Assembly: GCA_965230295.1 (NCBI GenBank)
Contig: OZ246001.1
Span: 3,008,001-3,072,000, forward strand
DNA length: 64,000 nt
Origin: Marinicella sp.
Lineage (GTDB): Bacteria > Pseudomonadota > Gammaproteobacteria > Xanthomonadales > Marinicellaceae
Reading direction: 5' to 3'
Positions 3,734-52,845 of the stretch are shown here, one piece after another. Position 1 is the first letter of the stretch. Every line of letters starts with the position of its first letter. The position numbers were made by a program, and so were the translations under genes. The notes under the pieces are model-generated. The model worked only from the letters and a program-made list of their open reading frames with translations. It searched no databases and was not told where the DNA came from.

Positions 3734-5065
3734 ATGAAAAAGTTAAAAATACTGGTTGATGGGTTCAACTTACAATTATCAAAAGGTACCGGAATCAAGA
3801 CTTATGGTTCTACATTATTGGATGCATATCAAAAAATGGGTTGTGAAATTGGCATACTTACTGACAAGGTAATCCCAAAAAGCAGAAAGGTTGTTCTTGA
3901 TGAAATCAATTTTTTTGACAATCAACCGATTCGAAAGAACAAAATTCAAATATTTAATGAATTTATTAATAGCGCCAGAAATATTGCGGGTATAGGGACA
4001 AGTCTTTATATCAAGCCCCAGTTTACAGAAATCAATAAAAAAAACTACTTATCGAAAAAAAGAGGTAAGTACAATCATATTGAAAACATCCCCAACATCT
4101 TCAGTGATGCCTATAAAGCATTCAAAATCTTTGGCACCTTTCCTAATATTAATGCATCAGAACAACCAGATGTTCTTCATCTTACAGCGCCTTGGCCAAT
4201 TAGGATGTCAAAAGCAAAAACTGTACTGACCATACATGATTTGATTCCTTTAAAACTCCCATTTACAACTTTAGATGATAAGTCCTATTTTTATAATTTA
4301 GTAAAAAAGTCTATCAACAATGCTGACGTAATTTTATCAGTTTCAAATTTTACCAAGAATTGCATTATAGATACTTTTGATGTTGATGATGAAAAAATAC
4401 ATGTAACATATCAAAGTATCGACACGAGCAGTTCTTTTAAAAAGTCCAAAAAATCAATGAAAAAATTTCTTAAATCAGTACAGCTGGAGCAGGAAAATTA
4501 TGTATTGTTTGTCGGCAATATTGAACCCAAAAAGAACCTGCCAACTCTAGTTAAAGCATTTTCTACTCTAAAACTAAAGTCTAAAGGCATGAAACTTGCG
4601 ATTGTTGGCTCAAAAGCTTGGATGTCTGAAGGTGAATTAGCAGTCTTGACTAAGTACCTCAAACCTGATCAGTATGAAATATTAGAATATGTTTCTGAAT
4701 CTAATCTGATTACTTTGTATAAACATGCGAGTTGCCTAGTCTTCCCATCAATTTATGAAGGATTTGGATTGCCTGTCTTAGAAGCCATGTACTATAAATG
4801 CCCAGTGATTTGTTCTAATGCTTCTTCAATTCCGGAAGTTGCTGGGGGAGCTGCTCTATATTTTTCCCCTTTAAATGAGCAGGATTTGAGGAAGAAAATG
4901 CAAGACCTAATTAATAATCCTTATAAGAGGTATGAGTTGATTCAAAAAGGGATCAATCAAGCTGAAAAATTCAGTCCTAGTAATTATGCAGAAAGATTAA
5001 TGACTGCATACGGAAGCTTGCATTTTTCTAATGCATCATTGTCAAGAAAGTATTTTTTGTGGTAG
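3734..5065 (+). CDS. GT4 family (GT-B) glycosyltransferase
   Basis: TIHDLIP, VGNIEPKKN, FPSIYEGFGLPVLEAM motifs. Confidence 0.92.
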   Translation: MKKLKILVDGFNLQLSKGTGIKTYGSTLLDAYQKMGCEIGILTDKVIPKSRKVVLDEINFFDNQPIRKNKIQIFNEFINSARNIAGIGTSLYIKPQFTEINKKNYLSKKRGKYNHIENIPNIFSDAYKAFKIFGTFPNINASEQPDVLHLTAPWPIRMSKAKTVLTIHDLIPLKLPFTTLDDKSYFYNLVKKSINNADVILSVSNFTKNCIIDTFDVDDEKIHVTYQSIDTSSSFKKSKKSMKKFLKSVQLEQENYVLFVGNIEPKKNLPTLVKAFSTLKLKSKGMKLAIVGSKAWMSEGELAVLTKYLKPDQYEILEYVSESNLITLYKHASCLVFPSIYEGFGLPVLEAMYYKCPVICSNASSIPEVAGGAALYFSPLNEQDLRKKMQDLINNPYKRYELIQKGINQAEKFSPSNYAERLMTAYGSLHFSNASLSRKYFLW

Positions 5066-5736
5066 GGAGAGGTCAGTGCAATGAACCCAATAGATGTGTT
5101 TGAATTTTAAGTTTATAGCTTGTTTTTATCAATAAAATTAATATGTTATCAGATTTTGATTAAATCTAAAGTACTTCAGACTAACGGCTTCTTCCTAAAA
5201 AGTACATTGAAACAACCTATAGCATAATTATTAATTTTCTTTAATTAATGTTGAATATGAATATCAACAGTTATTCGTTAGCATGAAATAGAATTAATAC
5301 ATGCTTTCTAAAAAATAATTAGCTAGACGATATTTGCAACTAGATTTAATGGTTACTTTTTAATTCAAATTTCGTTAAATATTCTCTTTCATTACCCTTT
5401 TTAGTAGTTCATTTTCCCGCTTGAACACAAACCATAAATTGAAACCTCTTAATTTTGAAAAACTGATGGTCAGTTAGATCAGCCGCACTGGGTTGGCGGA
5501 GCTATGCTGAGTCAGAGAGTTTATGCCCAAGGTGGTGAGTCATGTTGACAGTGATCGTATTCTATTCATTATTGTCTGGAACAAAAATGAATGAAGATCC
5601 AAGAATATTCCTTTAATATAATGTCTCAGCTTAAATTTCTAAATATGTTCTGCGATGATTAATATATTCAATATAATATACCTATTAAATGGTTAAATTA
5701 TCAGTAGAATATAAACTTATTTAAATATATTTTATT

Positions 5737-5850
5737 ATAAAAAAGCAGACCACAACTGTTTAGAAAGGGGGAAAAACATGTGTTGTGATCTGCTTAAATG
5801 GGCTTAACATTGATTCGAGGTGAGTTTAAATTAATGTAAGCTCGATTCAA
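5737..5850 (-). ncRNA. Candidate sRNA A (two hairpins, UUCCCCC loop, intrinsic terminator)
   Basis: Minus strand: hairpin TTGAATCGAG..CTCGAATCAA, then AAGCAGATCACAAC..TGTTT-TTCCCCCTTTCT-AAACA..GTTGTGGTCTGCTT-TTTT. No ORF; lies directly downstream of a 4-unit repeat box. Confidence 0.6.
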
Positions 5851-5875
5851 TTATTGAATTTATTGGAAATTTTAA

Positions 5876-5914
5876 CCTGATCTTTGACTGATTTTTACTT
5901 AATTAAAACCTGAC
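5876..5914 (-). promoter_or_regulatory. 11-bp-period box (4 units) driving candidate sRNA A
   Basis: + strand CCTGAT 5876, ACTGAT 5887, CTTAAT 5898, CCTGAC 5909. Confidence 0.7.
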
Positions 5915-5928
5915 TAGATATACGACTG

Positions 5929-5959
5929 AAAAAAGCTTGTTGCTAAGAACAAGCTTTTT
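5929..5959 (-). terminator. Intrinsic terminator of the Ig-like gene
   Basis: AAAAAAGCTTGTT-gctaag-AACAAGCTTTTT inverted repeat 30 nt past the stop. Confidence 0.75.
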
Positions 5960-5988
5960 CTTGGTTGATATGTGACAGAATTAACATA

Positions 5989-7755
5989 TTAAAATGATAA
6001 ACAGTCAAAGCCACTCTGTGAAATGAAGGGGTATTTTTCATCCTCATCAAATGAATTGTTATCTTGTGGATTTATGTCATTTATGCCACTTAATAATTCA
6101 ACAGCACCTTCAATTCTAATGAGCTCATTCAAAGGAGCATCGACGATTGCATTAATTTTGTATCTAAATGCAGCCCCTACAGGCAGATCTACTATTTCAT
6201 CAATATTACCTGTACCTGAATCAAAAGGGCAAACTGAACCACCATATGAATCACAAGTCCAAGAAAGATCTAAATATTCATTAAATGATTCGTATTCGCC
6301 TGGAAAAGAAGTCACTCGGACATTGCTGACATCCATATTACCAACATTAGTGACATCCAGGAAATATGTGGTTTCTTCATTCACACCATTCTGACAATTA
6401 GAAATGGTGACTTTGAGGTCAGGTAACTCGTCATCAAAATTCACGGCATTGATCTGTGGAATGACCAAAGGAAAGTTCTGATCAAGCGTATCGAGCGAAA
6501 ATCCTATTGTATATTCTTGATCTCCATCAGTATCCTCATCATCTTGGCCTTGAACACTGACCTCAATCGGTTGATTCCAGTTAGACTGGTCTAAGACAAT
6601 ATTTTGTTGAACCACTGTGCCTTCAGACATATCAGTTGAAAAAATTGCGATGTTGACATCATAAGCAGGTGCTTGCGTTAAACGGATAGTAAATTCATCC
6701 TCACCGCCCATTTCTGTTGTGTACAGTTCAGATCCATCATAAGTAATAATAAAATCATAAATTGCTAAATCATCCACCTGAAAATCAACTGGAACAGTAT
6801 TGGATTGATTTTGACCTGAATCTTCAGAATAAGCAAAAGCTCTGGCCGGCCCATTTGCGTATTCAATTTGAGACCTACATTCCCAAGAACCATCTGATTG
6901 AACAATTGTTCGGCAAATATCCTCACCAAGTTCACCAGTAACATACAAAGTATCATTTGGAGTTGCTGTGCCTATAAACTTTGGAAGTTTGGTATTAACT
7001 GTTCCATTAGCAGCAGGCCAGATAAACACAGGGTCAACTGTTGGGTAATAGTCTACATCGAATCTGGTCACAACAACATCAGATCGATTATCAGCAACAT
7101 CAAATGCATATGTAGAAAGTGTATGAGCGCCTTCGCCAAAGCCAGCAGGAAAATTACAGCTCCATAATCCATCTGTTCCAACTGTATTACTTAAACAATG
7201 ACGACCTCCGGAGTACATGAAAACTTGGCTTCCTTCGTCACCAGTCCCACTACCTGCTGAAAAGATTTGGTTGTAAAGAAATCCTTCAATTGGTGCCACA
7301 ATGTTTGGAGCCGCAGGTGCCACTGTATCTATAGTAACTTGAAGGGCCTCTGAATGATCAGACTCAACACCACCCACAGCAATTGGAGTTTCAGTATAAG
7401 TGATCATATAAGTGCCGTCTAATAATGGATCTGTTGGATGTATGCTAAATATTGGCGATCCAGAACAAGAACTATCCCCAATCAGAGTATTGGATGCTGG
7501 GGAATCAGAATACAAGTTAACTCGATTACCCACAGTGCATTCAACCCTAAAAGTAGGTTGATTGTGGTTGGTAATGCCATCTCCATTTACACCTGAGTCT
7601 TGCATTAAAATAGGTGGTGGATTCTGAGTCATTTGTTTTAAGCAACTTGAATCTTTTTCACATTGACCAGGTGTTGCAGAAGAACTGAGAGCCCAATGAT
7701 CAGACCACACGGGCCCGCTAATTAAAATCAAAAATAAAAATATACATTTATACAT
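5989..7755 (-). CDS. Secreted Ig-like repeat protein with Calx-beta/DUF11-like C-terminal domains
   Basis: Signal peptide MYKCIFLFLILISGPVWS (ATG 7755, GGAG 6 nt upstream). Bacterial Ig repeats (TNHNQPTF, DTVAPAAP, DGSWEC). Tail FISQSGFD. Confidence 0.8.
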   Translation of the reverse strand: MYKCIFLFLILISGPVWSDHWALSSSATPGQCEKDSSCLKQMTQNPPPILMQDSGVNGDGITNHNQPTFRVECTVGNRVNLYSDSPASNTLIGDSSCSGSPIFSIHPTDPLLDGTYMITYTETPIAVGGVESDHSEALQVTIDTVAPAAPNIVAPIEGFLYNQIFSAGSGTGDEGSQVFMYSGGRHCLSNTVGTDGLWSCNFPAGFGEGAHTLSTYAFDVADNRSDVVVTRFDVDYYPTVDPVFIWPAANGTVNTKLPKFIGTATPNDTLYVTGELGEDICRTIVQSDGSWECRSQIEYANGPARAFAYSEDSGQNQSNTVPVDFQVDDLAIYDFIITYDGSELYTTEMGGEDEFTIRLTQAPAYDVNIAIFSTDMSEGTVVQQNIVLDQSNWNQPIEVSVQGQDDEDTDGDQEYTIGFSLDTLDQNFPLVIPQINAVNFDDELPDLKVTISNCQNGVNEETTYFLDVTNVGNMDVSNVRVTSFPGEYESFNEYLDLSWTCDSYGGSVCPFDSGTGNIDEIVDLPVGAAFRYKINAIVDAPLNELIRIEGAVELLSGINDINPQDNNSFDEDEKYPFISQSGFDCLSF

Positions 7756-7817
7756 AGTCACACTCCATACACACGTTAATTAAGAGTCTCTATGTTAGGC
7801 CTAAACCAAAAGAAAAA

Positions 7818-10106: not shown

Positions 10107-12401
10107 ATGCAAACTTCTCAAGTTAATATAATTAATACTCCTTTTAAAGTTGGTGATTTTATAGTCAACCCTTCCTTAAGGACTATTACTAACAATAAAA
10201 AAGAAGTAGAAACCGTTCAGCCGAAGGTTATGGAACTGTTGTGCTTTTTAGCCAGTCATCAAGGCGAAGTTGTTAAAAGGGACACCATATTTGACTATGT
10301 ATGGAAAGATACTTATGTCAGTGAAGATGCGATGCACAGAACGGTATCATTGGTACGAGTGGCGCTGAATGACAATCCAAAGAAACCTGAGTACATAGTT
10401 ACAATTCCCAAAGCAGGGTATCAACTGATTGCCCCAGTTGAAATTGAAGGGAAGGAAACTGCACAACAAGATGATATTCATTATAAAAGGGCGTTTCTGG
10501 TTTTATTACCAGCATTTGTACTGTTATGGTTTTTGGTTCAATATTACACCCAACCCTCATATGCAGAAGACACAAGGGTCAGTTTTATTCCAATTAATTT
10601 GACTAAAAATGTTACATCTGAAAATTCAGATGAGTGGTTGTTTGAAGCAGGCCTTGTTTATTTAACTGAAATGATTGGGAAAAACAGCGATATCAATGCC
10701 AGAGCCCCGGTTCGTGAGTGGCGTCACAGTGAAAACAGTTCAAATTTGGCTATCAGCTTAATCGATAATGATAAAGCAGATTTGGTTGTTTTGGCAGATG
10801 TTGGAAAAGAAGAAGAGTTTTTTATATCTACGGTGCAAATCAGAGGAAGTAACGGAATTGTTGGCGAGCATCAATTCAAATCAAACTCAATCAACAGATT
10901 GATGGGTGACATCAATAACTGGGTAGGAGAGAGAGTCAGTGAGGATCAAATAGTGGTTGGCAACGATTTGATTGAGGAACAATTCCCCGAGCTCAGTGAT
11001 GATGATTATGCGGTAGAAAGTTTTTTAAGAGGGCTGTCAGCACAGCTACAAGGAGACGCAGGAAAAGCCATCAATTTTTTTGAGACGTCCATAGAACAAG
11101 ATCCTGATTTTCAATTGGCATGGTATCAGTTATCATTGGCAGAGAGGTTACAAGGTAATTATCAGAGGTCGATGGGAATATTAAATTCTCTAGAGAATTT
11201 GAAGAATGGTACATTTACTCATAGAGTTGCCAATGCAAAGGGAAATCTACTTTGGAGAACTGGAGAATATGATAAAGCTTTGGCTTCTCACGAAGTAGCG
11301 TTAACACATGCAAAAGAAGCAAAAAATCTTGATCATATAAGAAAATCTCTAGCAAACATAGCTTTGGTGAATTTAGAGTTGGGTGATACTCAAGCAGCAA
11401 GAAAAGCGCTTGATGAAGTGTTAACAATATTTAATGAAGAAAAACACGTAAAGATTCTGGGATATACTTACAATACATATGCTCGTTTGGAATATGAGGA
11501 ATATAATATAGCCGAAGCCATCGAAATGTCAAAAAAGGCCATAAATGCATTCTCATTGGAAGGAAATAGACGGGCGGAAACGAATGCAAGAGCCAGGCTT
11601 GGTGGTTATTTAATAGATATGAATCAATTTTCTGAAGCGGAAACCATTGTAACTGAAACGCTTTTTTTCAGAGAAGAATCTGATGACCGGTCTGGAATGA
11701 TTTCAAGTTATAATAAATTAGGCAAAATCTCTTTGGCTACAGGAAAGTTTGATGACGCTGAAAAACATTATATGAAAGTAACTTCACTCAGCAAGGCTTT
11801 GAAAGATAAAAATGATGAAGCTGAAAGCTACCTGAATTTAAGTCGTGTGTTTCTGATTAGCCAAGATTTACAGAAAGCCAGACTATACATTCAATTATTT
11901 AAAGATAATTCAGGTTCTGATGATGTGTCAAACATATATGCCAAAATACTTGATTTGCGTCTTGCAATTGGTGAAAAGAACTTTGAAAGCGCCCAAAAGA
12001 TTGTTGATGAGTTTGATGAACAAGATTTTCACTTGTACTACCTTTACAGTGGTGATTTTTATTATGAAACAGAAGACTATGAGTCCGCAGAGATTCAATA
12101 TCGAAAATTTCTAAATGAAATGCAGGCTAGAGGTAGAAATATTGAAATTGTTACAGGGTTTAACAGGTTGACGAGGATGTATTTGAAAACTGATATGAAA
12201 AAAGCGGCCTCAATCATAGACCAAACAAAATCATTGAATCCATTTTCATATCCTTACCTTAAATACAAGGCCATGGTAGCAAAAGAGAACAACATAGTTG
12301 ATGCTCAATCTTTGCTAAACGAACTTAAGTTATCGTCCAATGATTTTTGGTCGCCAGATGATCAAATTCTTCTGGAGCAGTACACAAAACTAATGGATTA
12401 A
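10107..12401 (+). CDS. CadC/ToxR-like membrane transcriptional regulator: OmpR/PhoB-type wHTH + TM helix + periplasmic TPR sensor
   Basis: QPKVMELLCFLASHQGEVV..VW..VSEDAMHRTVSLVRVALND..YIVTIPKAGYQL, then TM FLVLLPAFVLLWFLV, then long TPR array. Confidence 0.9.
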   Translation: MQTSQVNIINTPFKVGDFIVNPSLRTITNNKKEVETVQPKVMELLCFLASHQGEVVKRDTIFDYVWKDTYVSEDAMHRTVSLVRVALNDNPKKPEYIVTIPKAGYQLIAPVEIEGKETAQQDDIHYKRAFLVLLPAFVLLWFLVQYYTQPSYAEDTRVSFIPINLTKNVTSENSDEWLFEAGLVYLTEMIGKNSDINARAPVREWRHSENSSNLAISLIDNDKADLVVLADVGKEEEFFISTVQIRGSNGIVGEHQFKSNSINRLMGDINNWVGERVSEDQIVVGNDLIEEQFPELSDDDYAVESFLRGLSAQLQGDAGKAINFFETSIEQDPDFQLAWYQLSLAERLQGNYQRSMGILNSLENLKNGTFTHRVANAKGNLLWRTGEYDKALASHEVALTHAKEAKNLDHIRKSLANIALVNLELGDTQAARKALDEVLTIFNEEKHVKILGYTYNTYARLEYEEYNIAEAIEMSKKAINAFSLEGNRRAETNARARLGGYLIDMNQFSEAETIVTETLFFREESDDRSGMISSYNKLGKISLATGKFDDAEKHYMKVTSLSKALKDKNDEAESYLNLSRVFLISQDLQKARLYIQLFKDNSGSDDVSNIYAKILDLRLAIGEKNFESAQKIVDEFDEQDFHLYYLYSGDFYYETEDYESAEIQYRKFLNEMQARGRNIEIVTGFNRLTRMYLKTDMKKAASIIDQTKSLNPFSYPYLKYKAMVAKENNIVDAQSLLNELKLSSNDFWSPDDQILLEQYTKLMD

Positions 12402-12616
12402 CAGGCTCTTTTACCAAAAAGACTGAAACTTGATTCTGTTTGTTTGCGTGTTGTCGCAGTAAGGATATGGTTATTGAACTGATTTCACTCCAAATGCACC
12501 CCAGGTACAACTATTCTCAAATCACCTCTTCAGGCAGTGCTCCAAATCTCTTTCAACTGATCAGAATCTTACTTTTGCGGAATTAATTAATGTTTCAAAT
12601 TTCAGGTTTGATCAAT

Positions 12617-12644
12617 ATCAGATAATAATCAGGACTTAGTAAGG
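12617..12644 (+). promoter_or_regulatory. 11-bp-period box
   Basis: ATCAGA 12617, ATCAGG 12628, GTAAGG 12639; TAATCT -10 at 12665-12670. Confidence 0.75.
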
Positions 12645-12680
12645 TGTTGTTCTGGTTGAGGTCGTAATCTATCAACTTTC

Positions 12681-12726
12681 GGAAACATGAGTTTTATTCG
12701 TTATCTGAATGTAACCTCATGCTTTG
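12681..12726 (+). promoter_or_regulatory. Conserved 5'-UTR hairpin (copy 1 of 3)
   Basis: AAACATGAG-TTTTATTCG-ttatc-TGAATGTAAC-CTCATGCTT; related hairpins at 19463 and 32014. Confidence 0.5.
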
Positions 12727-12787
12727 CAGTTGGTACTTTGTCAAACATTGCAAAAAGTACATTGATTAATTAAGAGAAGGAAAAGTT

Positions 12788-13789
12788 ATGAATAGTTCAA
12801 GAGGTTTTAAGAAATTAAAAGGTTTGGCGTCTGCCGGCGCATTGGGATTTGCGGGCATGTTGGGAGCAGGCACCAACCGGGGAGGAGGGAACACAGTTGG
12901 TACTTCATTTTCATTGACTGGTGACAATGTTGTATGGAATGGTTTCTATAATGGGAGATCGTTCCCCTCATCTCATGCAGTCACAACCACCAATGGAGCC
13001 GAATACACCACCGAAACTACCCCTGCCTATTGCATCACTGATGCAGTGATGTTCGAAAACTCAAGTACTTACAGTAATGCTTTTGATTGTGCGATGATTT
13101 TAGCTGTAGATGGAATTCTGTTTATGAACCCTGATTCAAGTGTGACATTAGATGGGAATACGGTAACATCAGATGTGGTTACAGACATCACTCCAGGTAT
13201 TGATGCCCAGATCCAATACCGTATATACACAGATCGAAAAGTGGTCAGAGGTTTGTACTCATTGACCAACACTACATCAAGCAGTATCGATCTCAGTGCA
13301 GCCATTTTGGGTGATTATGGTTCTGATCTCGACACCAATATTGAAACATCCAGCAATAACAATGAAACAATAGAAAATTCTGATTTGTGGTTCATCACCA
13401 GCGATCTGTTTGATTCACGCATTGCAGACAAAAACACAACCCAAGGAAGTGGAAGTAGTTATGGCCCAGTCGTGACTACTACAAGATATGGGGTTGGTGC
13501 TGAAGTCATTCCCACCAACGCCTTAACCCCGATTAATGATGGTGCTGTCTATGGTCTACGATATCAGCTTAATATTCCAGCTGGGACAACGGTTCGAATT
13601 ATGGTGTTTCATGAATTGGGTCTACCTGTACTTGCTAGTATTCCAAATCAAGTTGCAGACGCTGCTGATTTTGAATCAATGACATCATTAGATGTGGCTG
13701 GGTTGATAGATGATTTGGATGATGGCATAAGGGATACTGTTGTGAATTATGGTGACAGTGACGTCATTTTCAATAGTGGTTTTGAATGA
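12788..13789 (+). CDS. Exported protein with atypical Gly-rich leader; paralogue of 19587..20567
   Basis: Leader KGLASAGALGFAGMLGAGTNRGG, beta-rich body, tail DVIFNSGFE. Confidence 0.8.
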   Translation: MNSSRGFKKLKGLASAGALGFAGMLGAGTNRGGGNTVGTSFSLTGDNVVWNGFYNGRSFPSSHAVTTTNGAEYTTETTPAYCITDAVMFENSSTYSNAFDCAMILAVDGILFMNPDSSVTLDGNTVTSDVVTDITPGIDAQIQYRIYTDRKVVRGLYSLTNTTSSSIDLSAAILGDYGSDLDTNIETSSNNNETIENSDLWFITSDLFDSRIADKNTTQGSGSSYGPVVTTTRYGVGAEVIPTNALTPINDGAVYGLRYQLNIPAGTTVRIMVFHELGLPVLASIPNQVADAADFESMTSLDVAGLIDDLDDGIRDTVVNYGDSDVIFNSGFE

Positions 13790-17021: not shown

Positions 17022-18614
17022 CTATTGATTAAAGCCATTAGCAAATATGCGATCATTACCAAACACCACATAGCTACTACCTGCATTGTTATTACCATTT
17101 GGGTCAGCATAAGGAGCCCCAATAATTAAGTCATCGATACCATCACCATTCACATCTCCAGCTGTGTTGACTGAATGGCCACTTTTATCACGGCCTCCAA
17201 CACCATTAAGCGTAAGACCAGTACCGCTGACCTCCAATGTTGAAAGATTGATTGGGCCCATAATATCAGTGGCTCCAAAAACGACATAGCTGCTACCAGC
17301 ATCAGTATTTCCATATGCGTCAGCGTAAGGAGCGCCAATAACCAAGTCATCAATTCCATCACCATTCACATCACCAGCTGTAGCGACAGATTGGCCGCTC
17401 AAATCTGTTGGTGCACCACCATATAGGGTAAAACCAGTACCGCTGGTCTCAAGGGTTGACAGATTGATTGGGCCAGCAATGTCATTAGCTCCAAAAACCA
17501 CGTAGCTGCTACCAGAATCAGTAACGCCGTTTGGGTCAGCATAAGGAGCCCCAATAATTAAGTCATCGATACCATCACCATTGACATCTCCAGCTGTGTT
17601 GACTGAATGGCCACTTTTATCACCGCCTCCAACACCATTAAGCGTAAGACCAGTACCACTGGCCTCCAGGATTGACAGATTGATTGGGCCCATAATATCA
17701 GTGGCTCCAAAAACGACATAGCTCCTACCTGCATCAGTATTTCCATATGCGTCAGCGTAAGAAGCGCCAATAACCAAGTCATCAATTCCATCACCATTCA
17801 CATCACCAGCTGTACTAACAGAATTACCAGTGAAATCAAGAAAAGCGCCGCCATTTAAAGTAATACCTCTACCATAGGTCTCTAGGGCTGACAGATCTAT
17901 GGGACCAGCAATATCACTGGCACCGAAAATCACATAGCATTCACCAGCTATGCCATCACCATTAGGTGCCCCAATAATCAAGTCATCGATGCCATCATTA
18001 TTCACATCTCCAGCTGAGCTGACAGAGTAGCCACTGTTAATGTAACTTCCAACTCCATTCAAGGCAAAACCTCTACTGCTGGCCTCAAGGTTTGATAAAT
18101 CTATGGTACCTGCAATATCACTGGCTCCAAAAATCACGTAGCTACTACCAGCATTTGTGATGCCATTTGGGCCTGCACTAGGTACCCCAATAATTAAATC
18201 ATCGATGCCATCATCATTGACATCACCTGCTGTGCTGACAGAATAACCACTCTCATCACCAGCTGTATCACCATTAAGAATAAAACCACTACCATTGGCT
18301 ATAAGGGTTGAAAGGTCAATAGTATTTGCAATACCACTGGTTCCAAAAATAACATAACTGCTACCAGCTGAGGGAATATCATTTGGGTCTGCACGATAAG
18401 CGCCAACAATCAGGTCATCAATGCCATCTCCATTGACATCTCCTGCCGAGCTGACAGAAAAACCACTGCGATCACCAGAATTACCACCATTCATGATGAT
18501 ACCTCTGTTGGGGATTAAGTTTGATAGGTCTATATTTGTGTCTAATTGTGCCACAGTTGTTTGTTGAAAGGCCAAAGCCACCAATGCAACCAGTTTTTTA
18601 TGTTTAATGTTCAT
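17022..18614 (-). CDS. Secreted FG-GAP repeat protein with internal two-blade duplication
   Basis: Eight FG-GAP repeats; near-identical DNA blocks at ~17100-17380 and ~17530-17810; tail DRIFANGFNQ. Confidence 0.92.
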   Translation of the reverse strand: MNIKHKKLVALVALAFQQTTVAQLDTNIDLSNLIPNRGIIMNGGNSGDRSGFSVSSAGDVNGDGIDDLIVGAYRADPNDIPSAGSSYVIFGTSGIANTIDLSTLIANGSGFILNGDTAGDESGYSVSTAGDVNDDGIDDLIIGVPSAGPNGITNAGSSYVIFGASDIAGTIDLSNLEASSRGFALNGVGSYINSGYSVSSAGDVNNDGIDDLIIGAPNGDGIAGECYVIFGASDIAGPIDLSALETYGRGITLNGGAFLDFTGNSVSTAGDVNGDGIDDLVIGASYADAYGNTDAGRSYVVFGATDIMGPINLSILEASGTGLTLNGVGGGDKSGHSVNTAGDVNGDGIDDLIIGAPYADPNGVTDSGSSYVVFGANDIAGPINLSTLETSGTGFTLYGGAPTDLSGQSVATAGDVNGDGIDDLVIGAPYADAYGNTDAGSSYVVFGATDIMGPINLSTLEVSGTGLTLNGVGGRDKSGHSVNTAGDVNGDGIDDLIIGAPYADPNGNNNAGSSYVVFGNDRIFANGFNQ

Positions 18615-18807: not shown

Positions 18808-19398
18808 TGACGTTAAAAGCTAATGGGCCGGTAGCCGAAAAATTTAAGAGATGATTTAGGAGATGCATTTTGGGATGTTATTCTGAACCATTGCGACGGT
18901 GAATACCTTAAACTAAGGAATAGTCAGGAATCTAAAATCAATTATTCAGCAACTCAAGATGTCAATTTACATTATTTGAATTTTCATAAATTAAGATTTG
19001 ATGTTCATCCAATCGGATAGTCAATATCTTGAAGTGAATGATCAAGAAAGCTACATTCTATTCATTCAAAAAAACACACCCAACAAAAAATATCATTAAA
19101 TGATCTCTTAATTATCAAAATCCTCGTTCATATTCAGCTTCTAGCCAATTATTTAGGACAAGTTCTGATGTCTTTTCAAAAAAACTCAAATTATGGGTCC
19201 AGAAAATTAACAAGTACAATTCAATGTAATAGCTAAACCGATTGAAATCGGTAAACCTTCAAAATCTCTAGTGGCAGAAGCCAACACATGATCAGATGAC
19301 CTAACAGCTTAATGTTAGTTGATTCGATGTTTTTTTCAATTCAGAAACTTGTTTCAAGCACACATGATCTGAATTCTGTATTTTTCAGCTTTGGCAAC

Positions 19399-19426
19399 AT
19401 CAGATAATAATCAGGAGTTCATAAGG
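19399..19426 (+). promoter_or_regulatory. 11-bp-period box
   Basis: ATCAGA 19399, ATCAGG 19410, ATAAGG 19421; TATTAT -10 at 19447-19452. Confidence 0.75.
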
Positions 19427-19586
19427 TCTTATTCTAGTTGGGGCGGTATTATTTCATTCGATGAAAACATGATTCTTGTTCGAAAATTGAACCAAACCAC
19501 ATGGTTATCATCGGTGCTGTCAGAACTGGAAGTAAATAGTTTTTTTCGACTTAAAGAATTTGGTGAAATGTATACGGGGAAATTCA

Positions 19587-20567
19587 ATGATTAAATCAAT
19601 TGGATTTAATAAATTAAAAGGGCTGGCATCTGCCGGTGCTTTGGGAATAGCGGGTATGCTGGGAGTAGGGGGCAATCGGGGAGGATCCAGCATTTCTGGA
19701 ACCCTCTCATTGACTGCTGACAATGTGGTCTGGAGATTCAATAATGAAGATTCATTTCCTACTTCAGGCACAGTCATCACCACCGGTGGAGCCATATATT
19801 CAGTCAGTCAATCAGCATATTGTGTCGTCGAAGCCATAGTCTTCGACAGCTTAGCAGCTTACTCAAATGCATTTGCCTTTGACAGTGCATTGATCTTAGG
19901 AGTTGATGGTAACTTATTTTTTAATCCAGATTCAACTGTGATTTTGGACGGAAATACAGTGACCTCTGATGTGGTTACAGACATCATTCCAGGGGTTGAT
20001 GCTCAAATTCAATACCGCATATTCACTGATCGAAAAGTAGTTAGGGGTTTATTTACTATGACCAATACTACACCAAATAGTATCAGTCTGAATGCTGCCA
20101 TTTTGGGCGGTTTTGGTGCGAATGAATCAGACATCAACATTGTGGCAACCAGTGATGCCGATACCAGCATAGATAATTCTGATTTGTGGTTTGTCACTGA
20201 CGAAGACACAGCCCAAGGTGGTGACGACCCAGTCATAACCACTACCAGGCATGGTGTTGATGCCGAAGTCGTTCCCACCAATGCCTTGACCCCGATCAAT
20301 GACGGTGCGGTTTATGGCCTCAGATACCAACTTAATATTGCAACAGGAGAAACGGTTCGGGTCATGGTGTTTCATGAACTGGGTTTGCCTAATTTGGTTG
20401 ACATCACAAATCAAGTTGCTAAAGCAGCTGATTTTGAATCGATGACATCATTAGATGCGGCTGGTTTGATCAATGATTTGAATGATTCTGTCAGAGACAC
20501 CATTGTGAACTATGGCGACAGTAACTTCATTGACGACATCTTCAAAGATGGATTTGAAAGCAATTGA
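19587..20567 (+). CDS. Exported protein with atypical Gly-rich leader; paralogue of 12788..13789
   Basis: MIKSIGFNKLKGLASAGALGIAGMLGVGGNRGG (ATG 19587 after GGGA); tail DDIFKDGFESN. Confidence 0.8.
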   Translation: MIKSIGFNKLKGLASAGALGIAGMLGVGGNRGGSSISGTLSLTADNVVWRFNNEDSFPTSGTVITTGGAIYSVSQSAYCVVEAIVFDSLAAYSNAFAFDSALILGVDGNLFFNPDSTVILDGNTVTSDVVTDIIPGVDAQIQYRIFTDRKVVRGLFTMTNTTPNSISLNAAILGGFGANESDINIVATSDADTSIDNSDLWFVTDEDTAQGGDDPVITTTRHGVDAEVVPTNALTPINDGAVYGLRYQLNIATGETVRVMVFHELGLPNLVDITNQVAKAADFESMTSLDAAGLINDLNDSVRDTIVNYGDSNFIDDIFKDGFESN

Positions 20568-31460: not shown

Positions 31461-31949
31461 GTACCGATCTAATTTTGACAGATATATGATTGTGCTAAAT
31501 TAAACAAAAACTAATTGGTAACCTAAGGTTAAAGTCGCAAAACGACCTGTTTTTTTAATATTCATTTGTATTTTTTGGCGAATCACCTATCGATATTAAT
31601 TGTAGATAAGAGAATTTATTGTTTCCTTACTTAAATATCAGTTGAGCTTTAATTATGCTCAACACTGCAAAATATACATGATGAAATTATGATTTATTCC
31701 TGACATTACCTGTATTTCGTCAAAACCTTATGGGCCAATAACCGTTTGCTTTATAGTGTGCTTCATTATGTTTAAATTGGAGGGTGGCTACTGATACCTG
31801 TTTTCGGTGAACCACATACTAATTTAAGGAAAAATATAGTTATTAGACATAGAGCCTGATAACTTAGATTGTTTGGTTGTATATTTAAAAATCCAAAGAT
31901 TCAAGCATACGAATATGATCCCATTACGAAAGTCTTCGATTTTATCAAT

Positions 31950-31977
31950 ATCAGATAATAATCAGGGCAAAATAAGG
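31950..31977 (+). promoter_or_regulatory. 11-bp-period box followed by the conserved leader hairpin (32014-32060)
   Basis: ATCAGA 31950, ATCAGG 31961, ATAAGG 31972; TAATAT -10 at 31998-32003. Confidence 0.75.
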
Positions 31978-32113
31978 TTTTATATTGGTAGGGATCATAA
32001 TATTTCACCTAATGAAAACATGGGTGTTATTACGAATTCTGAATGATTCCTCATGTATTTCTTTAGTGCTGTTTATGCATACAGTTAATTAATATATCGT
32101 ATAGAGGTGAATA

Positions 32114-32620
32114 ATGTTAAAACTTTTTAAGAAAACCAAACCAGTCGAAATTCAAGAAAACCAAAAGGATTTTACTGCTCCAGGAACAAGCATCAAATTT
32201 TCTCCAAGTTTAATCAATAAACTTGAAGATGATCATAAAACGCTCTTAAGTATTTTTACTCAAATTCAAGACGCATACAAAGCGAGAAAATACAAATTGG
32301 TCCAAGTAAAACTTAAGCATTTTAAGATGAACTTGATGGATCATTTATTGGTTGAAAATTTGAAGCTTTATGTATATTTAAGTCATTGTTTGGTTAATGA
32401 CGATGTCAATTCTCAATTGGTCAGAGAGTTTCGTACTGAAATGGATGGGATTGCTAAAGCTGTAATGACGTTTGTAAAAAAATATGAAACCATCGGCGTT
32501 AATAAAGAATTGGCACATTATTTTGAAAGAGACTTAGAAAAAATAGGAATTGCATTGGTTGAAAGAATCATGAGAGAAGAGAAAACACTCTATCCGTTAT
32601 ACATTCCTGGTAATTACTGA
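32114..32620 (+). CDS. Hemerythrin-like (HHE) domain protein
   Basis: LEDDHKTLL, DHLLVENLKLYVYL, RIMREEKTLYPLY; RBS GAGGTGA. Confidence 0.8.
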   Translation: MLKLFKKTKPVEIQENQKDFTAPGTSIKFSPSLINKLEDDHKTLLSIFTQIQDAYKARKYKLVQVKLKHFKMNLMDHLLVENLKLYVYLSHCLVNDDVNSQLVREFRTEMDGIAKAVMTFVKKYETIGVNKELAHYFERDLEKIGIALVERIMREEKTLYPLYIPGNY

Positions 32621-32698: not shown

Positions 32699-33196
32699 TT
32701 ACCCCACTTTTTCCCTGTTGTTTAGTAATGCTATTAGTTGGTTTGCAAACTCTTCTCCTTTATCAATTTTAATTGACTCAAGTTCAAGAAACTTGTCATT
32801 ACCCAATTGTAATGTTAATCGATCTGCAAATTTTCCAGGTAAGAAAGTTACCCCATTAATATCAAGCAATCGGATTTGACCAATTATTCTTTTTGTCCTT
32901 CCAGTGAATGCAGACCTTGCCCATACTAATATTCTCTTGTTACATAATCCAAAAACCATTTGTTGAGCAAGCACAATTTGATTGCTGTCTTCTTTTGTTT
33001 GTTCACTTTTGAGGTTATCTGCTCCAATTAATAAACCTGAAAGATCATTAGTTTTTTTGTGTGTTGACAAACCAACCCGTAATGCTGGTTTTTTAAGGTT
33101 TACCCTTAGACCAATTAATAGTTCTTCATCTGTTAACAGGTATTCATCAATTAATCTATTTAGTTTAATAGTGATCTCATTCATTACAATTTTCAT
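32699..33196 (-). CDS. Hypothetical protein
   Basis: 165-aa ORF, protein-like alpha/beta pattern, no SD; start abuts the terminator of candidate sRNA B. Confidence 0.6.
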   Translation of the reverse strand: MKIVMNEITIKLNRLIDEYLLTDEELLIGLRVNLKKPALRVGLSTHKKTNDLSGLLIGADNLKSEQTKEDSNQIVLAQQMVFGLCNKRILVWARSAFTGRTKRIIGQIRLLDINGVTFLPGKFADRLTLQLGNDKFLELESIKIDKGEEFANQLIALLNNREKVG

Positions 33197-33202
33197 GAAA
33201 AG

Positions 33203-33298
33203 AGGAAAAGGCTCGTTAGGAAAACAACAAAGTTGAACTAGGGGGAACGAGCCTCTTCATTTTGAACTCACATTTAGTGTGTGATAATTGAGTTCATT
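33203..33298 (-). ncRNA. Candidate sRNA B or attenuating leader (two hairpins, UUCCCCC)
   Basis: Minus strand: TGAACTCA-loop-TGAGTTCA, then AGGCTCGTT-CCCCCTAG..TTCCT-AACGAGCCT-TTT. Confidence 0.55.
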
Positions 33299-33328
33299 TC
33301 CAACAATACTCTAATTATGAAGTTTTTC

Positions 33329-33356
33329 CCTTATATAAATCTGATGAATTTCTGAT
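33329..33356 (-). promoter_or_regulatory. 11-bp-period box embedded in a 19-bp-arm palindrome (33323-33372)
   Basis: CCTTAT 33329, TCTGAT 33340, TCTGAT 33351. Confidence 0.7.
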
Positions 33357-33741
33357 TTGTATAAGGGAAAAAATATTAAGTGAAACGTTCGAGTTTACCT
33401 AAGGTGCAGAAACTCAAAGGCATATAATTATTTATTTTGAAATTAAAGTTTTCTAATGAGTGCAATTTATAGAATTAAGTAAATAATACCTAAACTTAAC
33501 TCCAAATATTATCATTACTTAAAAGAGGCTAATATAAAAATGAATACTTAACATAAATAAAAGCAATTTAACCGATAAATATCTGCTATGGATCACTATA
33601 TTAATAATAATTTTTAATTAGAACCAACTTTGATTTTCATACCTGACGTTCCTAATATTATTCTGATTATTTAGTATATGATTATAGAAATTAACATTAT
33701 TAAGTGGCTAGATCGAAATCATTAATCTTTCAGTTTTAGTA

Positions 33742-34011
33742 TTACTGGTTGTTAATTTTAGAATTTATGTATTCAATCAATGCAGAAACTTTTAAGTTTG
33801 CTTCAGTCAGCATTATTTTCAATTGTTTATTTTCCTTGTCATAATCTAATTGGTTATTATGCTCATTATTTAGATGGTCTTTAAACTTATACTTCCATTT
33901 TAAAAATGTGCTTTGTGCAATGTCATTTTTCTGACATATGTCATATACAGATTTTCCATTTTGATTTAACTTTAACAATTTAATTCTGTCTTCATCAGTA
34001 AATCTTTTCAT
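33742..34011 (-). CDS. Stand-alone IS3 OrfA-like HTH/coiled-coil protein
   Basis: KRFTDEDRIKLL..GKSVYDICQK.DIAQSTFLKWK.K..ENKQLKIML resembles IS3 OrfA. No OrfB or terminal IRs seen. Confidence 0.7.
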   Translation of the reverse strand: MKRFTDEDRIKLLKLNQNGKSVYDICQKNDIAQSTFLKWKYKFKDHLNNEHNNQLDYDKENKQLKIMLTEANLKVSALIEYINSKINNQ

Positions 34012-34019
34012 AATGCAAA

Positions 34020-34232
34020 CTACCTTATAACATTTAGTTCAATTGGTTTGAAACCAATGGCTTTGAGTTTATTTATTGGTATGATTATTGATATGGTTGG
34101 GTAATTTAGAACTAAGGTTCCACCAGATACCCGAAATTTAACACTCTCTATCATTTCTCCCGATTTCAAATATGCAACCAAATGTTTATTGGAATCAGAT
34201 TTAAACATATTGAGTAAAACAGCACTCACCAT
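34020..34232 (-). CDS. Small Hfq/Sm-like fold protein (paralogue 2)
   Basis: LLNMF..HLVAYLKSGEMI..TLVL..IIIPINKLKAIG; Sm1/Sm2-like pattern. Confidence 0.5.
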   Translation of the reverse strand: MVSAVLLNMFKSDSNKHLVAYLKSGEMIESVKFRVSGGTLVLNYPTISIIIPINKLKAIGFKPIELNVIR

Positions 34233-34288
34233 TTACATTTCTTCTATATCTTGAGTCGCTTTATTATGAGAACATGGTATAAAAAAAA

Positions 34289-34316
34289 CCTGATCAAAAC
34301 CCAATATTAGCCGGAT
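34289..34316 (-). promoter_or_regulatory. 11-bp-period box
   Basis: CCTGAT 34289, CCCAAT 34300, CCGGAT 34311; CATAAT -10 at 34263-34268. Confidence 0.7.
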
Positions 34317-34352
34317 TATTTTCTATTCATGAAAATTACTTTTTTTAAAGTG

Positions 34353-34391
34353 ATCAGGAAATAATCAAAATTAAATCAAACATTAATCAGG
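34353..34391 (+). promoter_or_regulatory. 11-bp-period box (4 units), divergent from the 34289 box
   Basis: ATCAGG 34353, ATCAAA 34364, ATCAAA 34375, ATCAGG 34386; GAAAAT at 34412-34417. Confidence 0.7.
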
Positions 34392-34444
34392 TAAAAGAAA
34401 TGTACAAATATGAAAATTCAATTTTAAAAATAATATTTACGTCA

Positions 34445-34630
34445 ATGAGTAACTTAATTTTCAAATATGTAACAGGTAGAGATGGGGTTAAACTTTATTT
34501 GTCCAACGGTAGCGTCTTAAAATGCTACATCAGTAGTGTATCAAAACACTACATTTCTGTCAGTTCTTCATCTGGGAATTCTGATGTGATGTTGTCAAAC
34601 ATCAGTGCCATTGGTTTGGAGCCTAGATAA
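34445..34630 (+). CDS. Small Hfq/Sm-like fold protein (paralogue 3)
   Basis: DGVKLYLSNGSVLKCYISSVSKHYISV..SDVMLSNISAIG is the closest of the four to Hfq [35 protein letters not shown]. ATG 34445 chosen from promoter spacing. Confidence 0.6.
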   Translation: MSNLIFKYVTGRDGVKLYLSNGSVLKCYISSVSKHYISVSSSSGNSDVMLSNISAIGLEPR

Positions 34631-34733
34631 ATATATATTTACACTTTTGGGCCCTCTATTCAATTTTGATCAGCTATTTACCCTAGTGAGGGCTCAGGGG
34701 TGTTTTTAAAGATTTTTTTACAGGTCATAAATA

Positions 34734-34793
34734 ATCAGAGTTTAGTCAGAAAAGACACAGCATTAAATCATGATTTGATCAGGCTTAATCAGA
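34734..34793 (+). promoter_or_regulatory. Extended 11-bp-period box
   Basis: ATCAGA 34734, GTCAGA 34745, CACAGC 34756, ATCATG 34767, ATCAGG 34778; TAGACT -10 at 34804-34809. Confidence 0.7.
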
Positions 34794-34847
34794 CTGAACA
34801 TCATAGACTGGAATTAAATTATATACACAATAAATTAGAGGTGAATT

Positions 34848-35531
34848 ATGAATACCAGGTCTAAATCAGATAATTATGCAGATATGCAATTAGAGTTTTA
34901 CCATCAACCTATTGTTGACGAAATAGGATCCAAACATGATTGGGTTGAGCTACTGGCCCGACCCAAAGTTAATCAGATGCCTATAGGGTTAGATGTGTTC
35001 TTTGGTGCCATGTCTGACAATGAGAAAGTTGATTTTGATATCATGGTTATTAATCGACTTCCACATGTCCAAAAAGAAACTCAATACAAAAGAATCAGTG
35101 TTAATATTTCTCCCTTGAGCATAACAGATCCTTTTTTTATTGAAGTCATTAATCGGCACTTCAACAATCGAACCATAGATTTTTCACGTATTTGTCTAGA
35201 GATTGTAGAAACTGATAAGTTACAAAAGTTAAACAAAAAGAGTATTCAACTGATCAAGCAACTTCGAAAATCAGGTGCTTGGATTGCCCTAGATGATTTT
35301 GGTACATGACACGCCCACTGGGAGCTTTTGCACCATGATTTAGTGGATGTGATTAAAGTAGTTAATGTAAATGTAAATAAATCTGTCAGTTCAATTGATT
35401 TGATTGCATCATTTTCATCATTTGCTCAATCAAATGGTTTTATAACCGTCTTAGAAGGGATTGAAACTGACCAGGATTTAAATCAGGGTATAGAGCAGGG
35501 GTTTAACCATTTTCAAGGCCATTTATTTTGA
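34848..35531 (+). pseudogene. EAL-domain protein interrupted by an in-frame TGA
   Basis: HQPIVD, ELLAR, ISVNISP, LEIVE, ALDDFGT*(35307-35309)HAHW..DVIK..VLEGIET..FQGHLF, all in one frame. Confidence 0.85.
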
Positions 35532-36524
35532 AATTTTGAAAAAGAATATCTATTTACCGTGTTTGGGTATAAAAACTTTAATACTGATTAGCCGAGACCT
35601 GTTTCAAGGTTTTTATAGCTATTAACAATACAAAGTAGAATGTCCAAAAATCGGGCTTTTTCCTCAGTACATGTTCAATGTACTGATTCTACTTAGAACA
35701 TTCCCCGAATCCTATTTCTATATCAGACATATTCCCACTGAATTCATGGCCAGAATTGGCGGGTTAAATTCATCAAAATACCATTTGTATAAAACTATTT
35801 TGCTGAAAAGATTTGTTATCTCATAGCCAATTAAAGAATAATTTATGGATATATTTGTTTATATACTTTTTATTTAAAACATTAATTGAGAAAGGATTGA
35901 TTGAAAAGAACACTTGGTGTGTATCTAATTAATAAAATTATGATTTCATCGGTTAATACCCCAAATATTCAAGGGCTAATACTAGTAAAAGTACGGCAAT
36001 CCAAGTTGCCTGGAGCGTAAAGAACTGAATCGTTGTTTCTAGTCACAAATATTATTGTTTATTATTTTTGAACTCCAGTGGTTCAAGAAGTGATCTCGAC
36101 AGCATAAATACTGGCTCCGTTCATCATATTGGCAATGACCCGTATATTATCGTCTTTCATACCTGCAAATAGCATGGCTTCTTGGAATGTTATCAGCTAA
36201 TATATGAAGTAATTTCAATTTATTTGAGTTTAACTGAACCCATACTATGCCATTGAAAGGTCATAAATATTGCAATCCTTGCCACAAAGCTATTGACTAT
36301 CCATGCGAATGATTAAATCTTGTTAACATATTTCTCTTTCACAATATTTTTTACTAGAGTCAAATAGAACAATCGGTGAAAGACTCAAAATTATTTTTAA
36401 TTTAAAACAAGGTTTCTGGTTGATAGGGTTCCCTCATTGAGCATACCTGAGAGGTGGAAAATAGGCAGGTAATTTGGTAAGGGCTCAAATCAGACTTGGT
36501 TTCTCATTAGTTCTTTGATTAAAT

Positions 36525-36628
36525 TGAAAAGGCTCGGATGGGTAACGAGGGTGAAAAAGGGGGGAACCACCCGAGCCAGTCCAAAATTGAACCCATAAGT
36601 AGAGAGAGAAAAAACTTATTGGGAACAT
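36525..36628 (-). ncRNA. Candidate sRNA C (two hairpins, CU-rich and UUCCCCCC loops, terminator)
   Basis: Minus strand: CCCA-ATAAGT-TTTTTCTCTCTCT-ACTTAT-GGG, then GGCTCGGGTGG-TTCCCCCCTTTTTCACCCTCGTTAC-CCATCCGAGCC-TTTT. Has its own box and CATAAT promoter. Confidence 0.65.
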
Positions 36629-36659
36629 GATGTATTATGTTGAAGCAGCAAATAATATT

Positions 36660-36687
36660 CCTTATAACCAGCTGATTATTTTCTGAT
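36660..36687 (-). promoter_or_regulatory. 11-bp-period box driving candidate sRNA C
   Basis: CCTTAT 36660, GCTGAT 36671, TCTGAT 36682; CATAAT -10 at 36634-36639. Confidence 0.75.
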
Positions 36688-36695
36688 TTAATTAT

Positions 36696-37103
36696 TTATT
36701 GAATGAATCTAACAAGCATTGTGATACTTAAACCAAAAAGAATGAGACCAAAGACACCTTGATATACCGCCAGTTTATTTCTGATCAGTTCTCCTTTGAT
36801 TAAAGCCTCTTTTGATTTAGAAAATAAGACTGAACCTAATAATAAATTCAAACTCAGTAAAAAACCAACATTCACCATCACTACCACCGTTAATATAGAT
36901 ATCAGGTCAAAAAAACCTTGTGACAGTGCCTTTGCTAACATGATGGCGTTATAAATACCCCAGCATAGTAGAGTCAAGCCAATAAGACCTTGATAAGGAA
37001 CCAGTTTCTCAAAAAACTTTTGACTTGCAGGTTTGATTTTAAGAACCAATGACGCTGCAGCAGTCAATCCACCCAAAATGGAAATTAATATACTAAACAT
37101 CAT
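36696..37103 (-). CDS. Small integral membrane protein (about 4 TM)
   Basis: Hydrophobic segments; internal repeat KLVPYQGLIG / KLAVYQGVFG. Confidence 0.75.
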   Translation of the reverse strand: MMFSILISILGGLTAAASLVLKIKPASQKFFEKLVPYQGLIGLTLLCWGIYNAIMLAKALSQGFFDLISILTVVVMVNVGFLLSLNLLLGSVLFSKSKEALIKGELIRNKLAVYQGVFGLILFGLSITMLVRFIQ

Positions 37104-47136: not shown

Positions 47137-47190
47137 TGGGATATTCCTAAATTTAGCAATTATTATTTTCTATAGTTCCCTGGATTAATA

Positions 47191-47228
47191 ACTGATCAAA
47201 AACTGATTTAGTGATGATTTTTTCTGAT
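47191..47228 (-). promoter_or_regulatory. 11-bp-period box
   Basis: ACTGAT 47191, ACTGAT 47202, GATGAT 47213, TCTGAT 47223. Confidence 0.7.
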
Positions 47229-47340
47229 TAATTTATCTCTGTAATTTATTCAAAATCACTTTTTTGTATTGATTTGATGTTTGAATGCTTCTATCAAACA
47301 TATTTGTCGAAGGTTTCCCTTTAATTAGATACAGAATTAA

Positions 47341-47368
47341 ATCAGGTAAAAACAAGGGTTTAATCAGG
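47341..47368 (+). promoter_or_regulatory. 11-bp-period box driving candidate sRNA D
   Basis: ATCAGG 47341, ACAAGG 47352, ATCAGG 47363; GATAAT -10 at 47389-47394. Confidence 0.75.
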
Positions 47369-47400
47369 ACATTATCCTGATGTTTCTCGATAATGACCGT

Positions 47401-52732: not shown

Positions 52733-52771
52733 ATCAGGTATTAATTAAGTAAAGGTCAGCAATAGATCAGG
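52733..52771 (+). promoter_or_regulatory. 11-bp-period box
   Basis: ATCAGG 52733, GTCAGC 52755, ATCAGG 52766; AATAAT at 52792-52797. Confidence 0.7.
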
Positions 52772-52845
52772 ATTATGATTTAAATATATTCAATAATTAA
52801 ATTGATGCAATGGATGTGTCTTATTAATTTAGTGAATTACAAATC

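Follow-up and report, generated by a model that had tools for sequence, protein, structure and literature searches.

A small RNA of about 105 nt is predicted on the minus strand at 5739-5843 of the window, i.e. the 64,000-nucleotide stretch of a Marinicella genome analysed here, and this sRNA A probably corresponds to a genuine, so far undescribed sRNA gene whose functional kind is well known. In our preferred reading, to which we assign a probability of roughly 0.55, A acts in trans by pairing with G-rich ribosome-binding sites and is switched on together with the genomic island that surrounds it, probably by a ToxR-like regulator. Newly found is that the loop motif of A is shared with two covariation-supported sRNAs, E and F, which are encoded outside the window. 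As predicted from sequence, A most likely represents a familiar type of regulator in a new context, and the by-products of the analysis, a regulon covering the island and two conserved core sRNAs of the same seed, are more interesting. A first-pass annotation had described A as a candidate sRNA and as the founding example of a four-member family; what it observed is confirmed, and its interpretation is partly supported.

The orphan transcription unit A

Upstream of A lies a minus-strand Big_13 gene (5989-7761; Pfam), the terminator of which is located at 5929-5960 on the same strand (13-bp stem, -13.5 kcal/mol, z -4.56, with none of 200 shuffles equalling its fold). As had been proposed, this terminator insulates the promoter of the predicted sRNA from the Big_13 gene. 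The promoter carries a repeat box at 5877-5914 (minus strand) with the units GTCAG (5914-5910), TTAAG (5902-5898), ATCAG (5892-5888) and ATCAG (5881-5877), spaced by about 11 bp, and the TCAG starts at 5913, 5891 and 5880 correspond to offsets of 33, 11 and 0. Considering that three TCAG units are exact and one, TTAAG, is degenerate, the earlier description of a four-unit box is fair. A further TCAG at 5929 is out of phase with the box and resides inside the tail of the upstream terminator. The -10 box, AATAAT (5850-5855, minus strand), is placed 25 nt past the proximal TCAG, and there is no usable -35 box, the AT(C/A)AG repeats being found in its place. Phased direct repeats replacing the -35 represent the layout of OmpR/PhoB/ToxR-type winged-helix activators. 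The promoter is 81% identical to a paralogous promoter at 52734-52805, ahead of the gene at 52846, and the likeness ends at the predicted transcription start.

The ends of A were placed using the -10 box for the start and the U-run for the end. As the first-pass annotation had noted, the box points into ORF-free DNA: the minus strand of 5065-5943 holds no ORF of at least 30 aa, and about 670 bp downstream of A are free of ORFs. The corresponding 109-nt RNA (5843-5735) folds at -28.7 kcal/mol (z -6.34, none of 200 shuffles as good) into the two hairpins that had been described. Hairpin 1 (5800-5843, minus strand) exposes the apical loop AAACUCACCUC at 5827-5817, in which UCACCUC represents a 7-nt identity with the 3' tail of the organism's own 16S rRNA, GAUCACCUCCU; as claimed before, it is complementary to the GAGGTGA ahead of the ATGs at 30908 (minus strand), 32114, 34848 and 52217 (minus strand). 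The terminator hairpin (5743-5795, minus strand) displays the C-rich apical loop UUCCCCCUUUCU at 5773-5762 and is followed by six U (5744-5739). Both apical loops are G-free. Among 45 sites recovered by a crude scan of the window for a hairpin plus T-run, a scan that overlooks the units B and C treated below, A is the only one with a C5 terminator loop. The G+C-rich patch at 5445-5575 showed no significant structure on either strand. With a promoter and a terminator of its own and no ORF, A is thus an orphan promoter-RNA-terminator unit, and from this anatomy we infer that it is transcribed.

Units B, C and D

The layout of A had been reported to recur at three further places in the window, and this is indeed observed, with the reservation that in the third, unit D, the C-loop hairpin is not immediately followed by a U-run and that the paralogues of D lack the C-run. 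Unit B (33200-33356, minus strand) has its box at 33356-33341 and a CATAAT -10 at 33319-33314, giving an RNA of about 108 nt with a CACACAC-type, G-free loop 1 (AUCACACAC) and the terminator loop UUCCCCCUAG (z -2.6, 3 of 200 shuffles as good). It ends 4-9 nt short of a 165-aa ORF (32699-33196), into which it runs, and could also function as a leader. Unit C (36522-36687, minus strand; box 36687-36672, -10 CATAAT at 36639-36634 with an offset of 36) yields an RNA of about 106 nt with a CU-rich, G-free loop 1 (UUUUUCUCUCUCU), the terminator loop UUCCCCCCUUUUU and a fold z of -4.7. The terminator loops of B and C both begin UUCCCCC(C), and the alignment of the two units covers the promoter, a GGUUCAA linker and GGCUCG...CGAGCCUUUUC. 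B and C are paralogues, as they align and keep both helices through two-sided changes, U-A being replaced by C-G in hairpin 1 and by G-C in the terminator. The alignment of A with B and C is confined to the box and the C-run. Downstream of A and C, no same-strand ORF of at least 30-40 aa is present for several hundred bases, and each of the two converges on plus-strand genes.

In unit D (47341-47542, plus strand), two box units lie 22 nt apart, at 47342 and 47364, and the -10, GATAAT, is at 47389-47394. The loop of its hairpin 1 is ACACACACUCUCUCU, and this hairpin sequesters AAGGAGC; the loop of hairpin 2 is CACCCCCUUA, and the fold reaches a z of -5.5. No gene is found within 1.4 kb downstream. 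The paralogues of D at genome positions 1629145 and 2683841 have identical promoters, and a signal-peptide (secreted-protein) gene follows about 290 nt further on. The notion of a four-member family is consequently not upheld: only B and C are recognisably homologous, A shares loop motifs with them, and D belongs to another paralogue group. What unites A, B, C and D is a common promoter type and loop vocabulary, not common descent.

We also observed a D-type family of structured leaders or sRNAs at window 47341-47542 (plus strand) and genome 1629145, 2683841 and 3699348, composed of a box promoter, a hairpin pairing UAAGGAGC with GCUCUUUA, and a long second hairpin.

Two core sRNAs with the same loop

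When the whole genome was scanned for hairpin loops that contain TCCCCC and have a T-run behind them, A and B were returned together with two units outside the window, E and F, which are undescribed sRNAs as predicted from sequence. E (plus strand, genome position about 485755-485832) lies directly after an AhpC/TSA-family gene; its TTGAAA-N18-TATAAT promoter is followed by a hairpin exposing the loop CCUUCCCCCUUUA and then by a terminator. E was recovered in 11 of 23 same-genus genomes with promoter and loop conserved, the loop being identical in 11 of 12 sequences, and 14 of its 26 predicted pairs show compensatory changes. F (minus strand, genome 1655078-1655172) is situated between groEL and a tusA-like gene and was found by BLAST in 21 of 23 same-genus genomes. 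A conserved TGTGA-N6-TCACA palindrome of the CRP type precedes it, its hairpin loop CUCACACACACCCUUUUCCCCCUUU is conserved, compensatory changes occur in 9 of 24 pairs, and in five species the terminator loop is C-rich too. With a covariance model of F, 21 of 24 genomes of the genus yield a single copy scoring 81-109 bits, and a cut copy in G012 and a weak match in G004 are recognised in addition. Neither E nor F has an Rfam match.

The motif UUCCCCCUUU is the near-invariant apical loop of E and F and is present also in A. A and F further share 14 loop nucleotides, UUUUCCCCCUUUCU, preceded by a CACA-rich stretch; the 14-mer TTTTCCCCCTTTCT occurs twice in 8 Mb (both strands), namely in A and F, with 0.034 occurrences expected. 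Since the 14-mer is identical in A and F and the stems are wholly different, the loop has been kept or copied and the rest has been free to change. Thus, the C-rich loop of A looks selected, and the first-pass proposal of selection on the loop gains support from the conservation of the same motif in the loops of E and F.

F and A are both two-hairpin RNAs, but the motif is found in hairpin 1 of F and in the terminator loop of A, and where F has the TGTGA-N6-TCACA palindrome and the groEL-tusA neighbourhood, A is preceded by the AT(C/A)AG repeat box and lies in the island. Membership of A and B in the F family was also assessed. The F model matches both at full length and on the correct strand, though with 16.9 bits (E 0.09) and 17.2 bits, compared with 16.4-21.4 bits for plain terminators, and a search of the whole genome with the model listed neither A nor B at an E-value of at most 1. 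With an F profile (nhmmer), the loop of A is the best match of the window at a marginal E of 0.13; 14 nucleotides of the conserved F loop CACACACCCUUUUCCCCCUUU are exact in A. As the scores of model and profile are at background, we did not place A in the F family.

When 40 relatives, 23 of them from the same genus, were searched by BLAST with A, B and C, no homologue was recovered, only stretches of 19-45 nt from promoter parts; without a homologue of A in the 40 relatives, its structure has no covariation support. Lack of structural conservation in relatives, named by the first-pass annotation as grounds for giving up its proposal, applies by half, homologues of A, B and C having been found in none of these 40 relatives.

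Comparison with known C-rich-loop sRNAs

RsaE/RoxS, RNAIII and 6C RNA are C-rich-loop sRNAs of Gram-positive bacteria; the C-rich loop seed is alike, but A matches none of these families. The RsaE model reaches 18.3 bits, its gathering score being 79, and does so on the neighbouring terminator rather than on A. In Rfam 15, no family reached its gathering score within the 64-kb window, and scans with permissive E-values of 5000-6100, 33100-36750 and 47150-48900 yielded nothing on A-D, so that the Rfam check suggested earlier leaves all four without a family match. For Gram-positive sRNAs, C-rich loops serving as seeds against G-rich sites have been described (PMC6486639, PMC2837412).

LhrC1-5 of Listeria monocytogenes are multicopy sRNAs under the LisRK two-component system, about 100 nt long and folded into two hairpins, with C-rich motifs exposed in loop A and the terminator loop; through these motifs they bind a G-rich site that precedes the start codon of a surface-protein mRNA, and induction proceeds via an envelope-sensing regulator (PMC4132741). 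The likeness to A-D is that of sibling RNAs of about 100 nt with two hairpins and C-rich loops. The differences are a Gram-positive host, a UCCC motif with U4 in place of UUCCCCCUUU, and no match in sequence or Rfam; moreover, the siblings in the island are barely alike, and their regulator is probably a membrane-bound one-component winged-helix protein. When the UCCC-U4 motif, which LhrC carries in loop A, in the linker and in the terminator loop, was looked for in A, the terminator loop read UCCCCCUUU, loop 1 read CUCACCUC with no UCCC, and the linker had none.

The csRNAs of streptococci, controlled by CiaRH, have a direct-repeat activator box that replaces the -35 and a terminator within about 100 nt; they contain anti-Shine-Dalgarno sequences, are present in several copies per genome, form one regulon with protein genes, and were discovered through the logic of box plus terminator (PMC3091779). 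Their box, given there as (N)TTAAG-N5-TTTAAG, lies 10 bp from the -10, as opposed to AT(C/A)AG in an 11-bp phase and 21 nt in A, and their anti-Shine-Dalgarno sequence is located between the hairpins (PMC3091779) as opposed to the loops here; there is no Rfam match. An assignment of A to the csRNAs was rejected, its box differing from TTTAAG-N5-TTTAAG in both sequence and distance (PMC3091779). In Xanthomonas, apical C-rich 4C loops of sX13 repress mRNAs with G-rich ribosome-binding-site motifs (PMC3771888); sX13 has three loops and is a single-copy core gene beside polA, different from the box-driven, island-borne A-D. It is similar to A in being a Gram-negative C-rich-loop sRNA and has no sequence similarity to it. 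By analogy, A would resemble LhrC, sX13 and the csRNAs in function only, the comparisons of box and sequence having placed it in none of them.

The island and its box regulon

The source genome is a single contig of 4.01 Mb with 44% G+C, of which the window makes up 1.6% at a G+C content of 38.7%. Pfam matches in the window include a TonB-dependent receptor and a cytochrome cd1 nitrite reductase, which identify the host as Gram-negative. The central 50 kb encode secreted or surface repeat proteins (FG-GAP, DUF285, Big_13, CarboxypepD_reg), small hemerythrin, EAL and ankyrin proteins, and a 764-aa protein with Trans_reg_C and TPR domains, all according to Pfam. The EAL-domain gene at 34848-35531 (plus strand) is apparently split into two frames, 34848-35309 and 35328-35531, and may therefore be a pseudogene; the region from 47.4 to 48.9 kb contains no ORF longer than 72 aa. 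These two observations suggest that parts of the island are decaying. Runs of C and of G are strongly depleted throughout the genome, with CCCCC found 1842 times (4125 expected from composition) and TTCCCCC 107 times (324 expected).

The AT(C/A)AG box represents a genuine regulatory signal. The window contains 18 copies of ATCAG-N7-TCAG, compared with a mean of 0.68 and a maximum of 3 in 100 dinucleotide shuffles, and 19 of the 99 matches in the genome are at 3.00-3.10 Mb. When a -10-like hexamer is demanded 24-26 nt past the proximal TCAG, 71 candidates are retained genome-wide, 18 of them in the window, and the 25-nt offset seen in A is common to most box promoters of the window. As the middle unit of the DUF285 promoters is ATAAG, the unit is AT(C/A)AG in an 11-bp phase. 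In total there are about 35 box promoters, some 25 in the low-GC island and about 9 elsewhere. They precede nearly every island gene, and nearly all of them head secreted or surface proteins. Inside the window the regulon extends over 3661-54783, and the -10 follows the proximal TCAG at 25 nt or, in some cases, 36 nt; outside, it comprises genome positions 1236640, 1436094, 1629145, 1936857, 2683841, 2689050, 3694362, 3699348 and 3851895, and all seven of the outside promoters inspected head signal-peptide proteins. This genome has 45 occurrences of ATCAG-N6-ATCAG, compared with 10-26 per genome in 15 others of the genus, hence a regulon this large was found only here among the genomes searched.

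The candidate regulator is the 764-aa protein encoded at 10107-12401 (plus strand). It has a ToxR/CadC-like layout, i.e. an N-terminal winged helix (Trans_reg_C, residues 37-107, Pfam E 1.2e-15), one candidate membrane span (residues of about 126-147, hydrophobic as judged by eye) and a C-terminal part with TPR repeats at about 300-680 (Pfam). Judging from its location in the same island, this membrane-anchored ToxR-like protein is probably the activator that recognises the box. Seven matches to its family are present in the genome, and the member at genome position 1436209 adjoins a box cluster. Proteins of about 770 aa with winged helix, membrane span and TPR represent an expanded, fast-diverging family in the genus, with up to 21 members in one relative (G017). 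The closest homologue of the island regulator, 33% identical, is encoded by another relative (G004), where the 24 kb of its locus contain no comparable box regulon and no C-loop unit. A search of genome contigs with the regulator as query gave a single match, 28% identical, in Marinicella sediminis.

Candidate targets

The 10-mer TTCCCCCTTT is not over-represented in the genome (6 occurrences, 7.1 expected) and is unusual in placement only. Its complement AAAGGGGGAA accordingly occurs six times: three are antisense to A, E and F, two are situated before ATGs, and one is elsewhere. The two sites before ATGs are at a distance of 2-5 nt; the two genes, at genome 2005717 and 2814559, encode a membrane protein of 244 aa and a secreted BNR/sortilin-like protein of 994 aa. 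In about eight further genes, GGGGGA(A) forms the ribosome-binding site. Orthologues of the candidate targets retain the G-rich Shine-Dalgarno site in part (3 of 5 and about 2-3 of 5), which is uninformative; such sites are in any case purine-rich.

Within the island, six loops were paired with 19 predicted leaders, and the duplex energies were no better than those of shuffled loops; the best duplex, loop 2 of C on the leader of 19411, reached -17.5, with the 5% level of the shuffles at -16.3. Energies of full-length duplexes were discarded as they ignore intramolecular structure. G-runs are few on the transcribed strands of the island and are located at 19575-19595 (plus strand), 54640 (minus strand) and 16830 (minus strand). 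The first, ACGGGGAAAUUCAAUG, is probably the true start of the 19560 gene, the second is a GGGGGAA 57 nt into the ankyrin gene, and the third is a GGGGGAA after the FG-GAP gene at 17022-18614. As candidates for pairing with the C-loops, these three sites did not exceed shuffled controls.

Proposed mechanism and alternatives

In the mechanism we propose, A would be encoded by a gene of its own and act in trans as an RNA of about 105 nt. The repeats on one face of the helix would replace the -35 in the manner of winged-helix activators, and since the same box is found on A and on the promoters of the island secretome, A would be made together with the secretome. Its two G-free loops, the anti-Shine-Dalgarno copy UCACCUC and UUCCCCCUUUCU, may then pair with G-rich ribosome-binding sites (GAGGUGA, AAAGGGGGAA), and such pairing would be expected to block initiation of translation. 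The C-loop of A equals the seed of E, which has a sigma-70-type promoter, and of F, which has a CRP-type palindrome, such that A, B and C may carry the island signal to the targets of E and F.

It is also conceivable that A is debris, with a duplicated island promoter, a copy of 52734-52805, firing into leftover DNA to give a functionless RNA. The 81% promoter likeness that breaks off at the predicted start is congruent with such an origin, as are the lack of a homologue in the relatives searched, the roughly 670 bp of ORF-free DNA past A, and the other signs of decay at 47.4-48.9 kb and in the split EAL gene. We nevertheless consider it unlikely, as the C5 loop is present in all four orphan units despite the genome-wide depletion of C-runs, as A has 14 nt in common with the conserved loop of F on completely different stems, and as loop 1 is an exact 7-nt anti-Shine-Dalgarno copy. 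Rather improbable, in turn, is a role as a sponge, where A would use its C-rich loops to sequester a G-rich RNA or an RNA-binding protein instead of pairing with mRNAs. The several C/U- or C/A-rich loops per RNA and the several copies are reminiscent of decoy RNAs, and the island offers no significant mRNA partner; however, no candidate C-binding protein was identified, and the motif complements Shine-Dalgarno-like sites at real gene starts.

A cis-acting leader or attenuator, in which read-through of a conditional terminator expresses the DNA downstream, is plausible for B, whose terminator tail overlaps the ATG of the promoterless 165-aa ORF. For the group as a whole it has a slightly lower likelihood than the sponge, considering that A and C are followed by the stretches free of same-strand ORFs described above and converge on plus-strand genes. 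Least credible, with a very small chance of being correct, is a small-peptide gene. The only ATG frame in A starts at 5810 and spans 16 codons ending in FPPF; short frames exist in B and C as well, and those covering the C-run likewise give PP. Against this, the C-run forces PP, the frames of A, B and C are unlike in length and sequence, and none has a Shine-Dalgarno sequence, though the genome uses strong ones.

A wider scenario, in which an acquired, lineage-specific secretome island brings its own membrane sensor-activator and three to four RNAs that mimic the seeds of the core sRNAs (UUCCCCCUUU; E and F), is put forward tentatively, and we think it somewhat doubtful. If the seed is shared in this way, with the second loop being anti-Shine-Dalgarno or CA/CU-rich and E and F under other promoters, three or more signals would converge on a single set of G-rich ribosome-binding sites, and the island would plug into the post-transcriptional network of its host. 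Provided that the RNAs are real, one repeat box, about 35 promoters, a probable ToxR-like sensor and seed-sharing RNAs would constitute a compact, sharply defined system in an unstudied Gram-negative genus, and a test case for how acquired genes are wired into existing RNA regulation. The families of E and F and the island siblings would then be added to the catalogued C-rich-loop sRNAs, few of which come from Gram-negative bacteria. As the mechanism is well known, the gain would lie in breadth and not in a new principle.

Further box promoters of the island

A box with a plausible -10 is located at 4695-4710 (minus strand), antisense within the glycosyltransferase gene at 3734-5065, and may be an antisense promoter or a chance site. 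Three other box promoters, at 12600-12800, 19382-19600 and 31933-32125 (plus strand), contain ATCAGATAATAATCAGG with a -10 offset of 36 and have a common leader of about 110-150 nt that is 73% identical. This leader, composed of GAAAACAUG plus a CAUG...CAUG hairpin, heads two paralogous unknown proteins and a hemerythrin/Rsd-like protein, and may be cis-regulatory.
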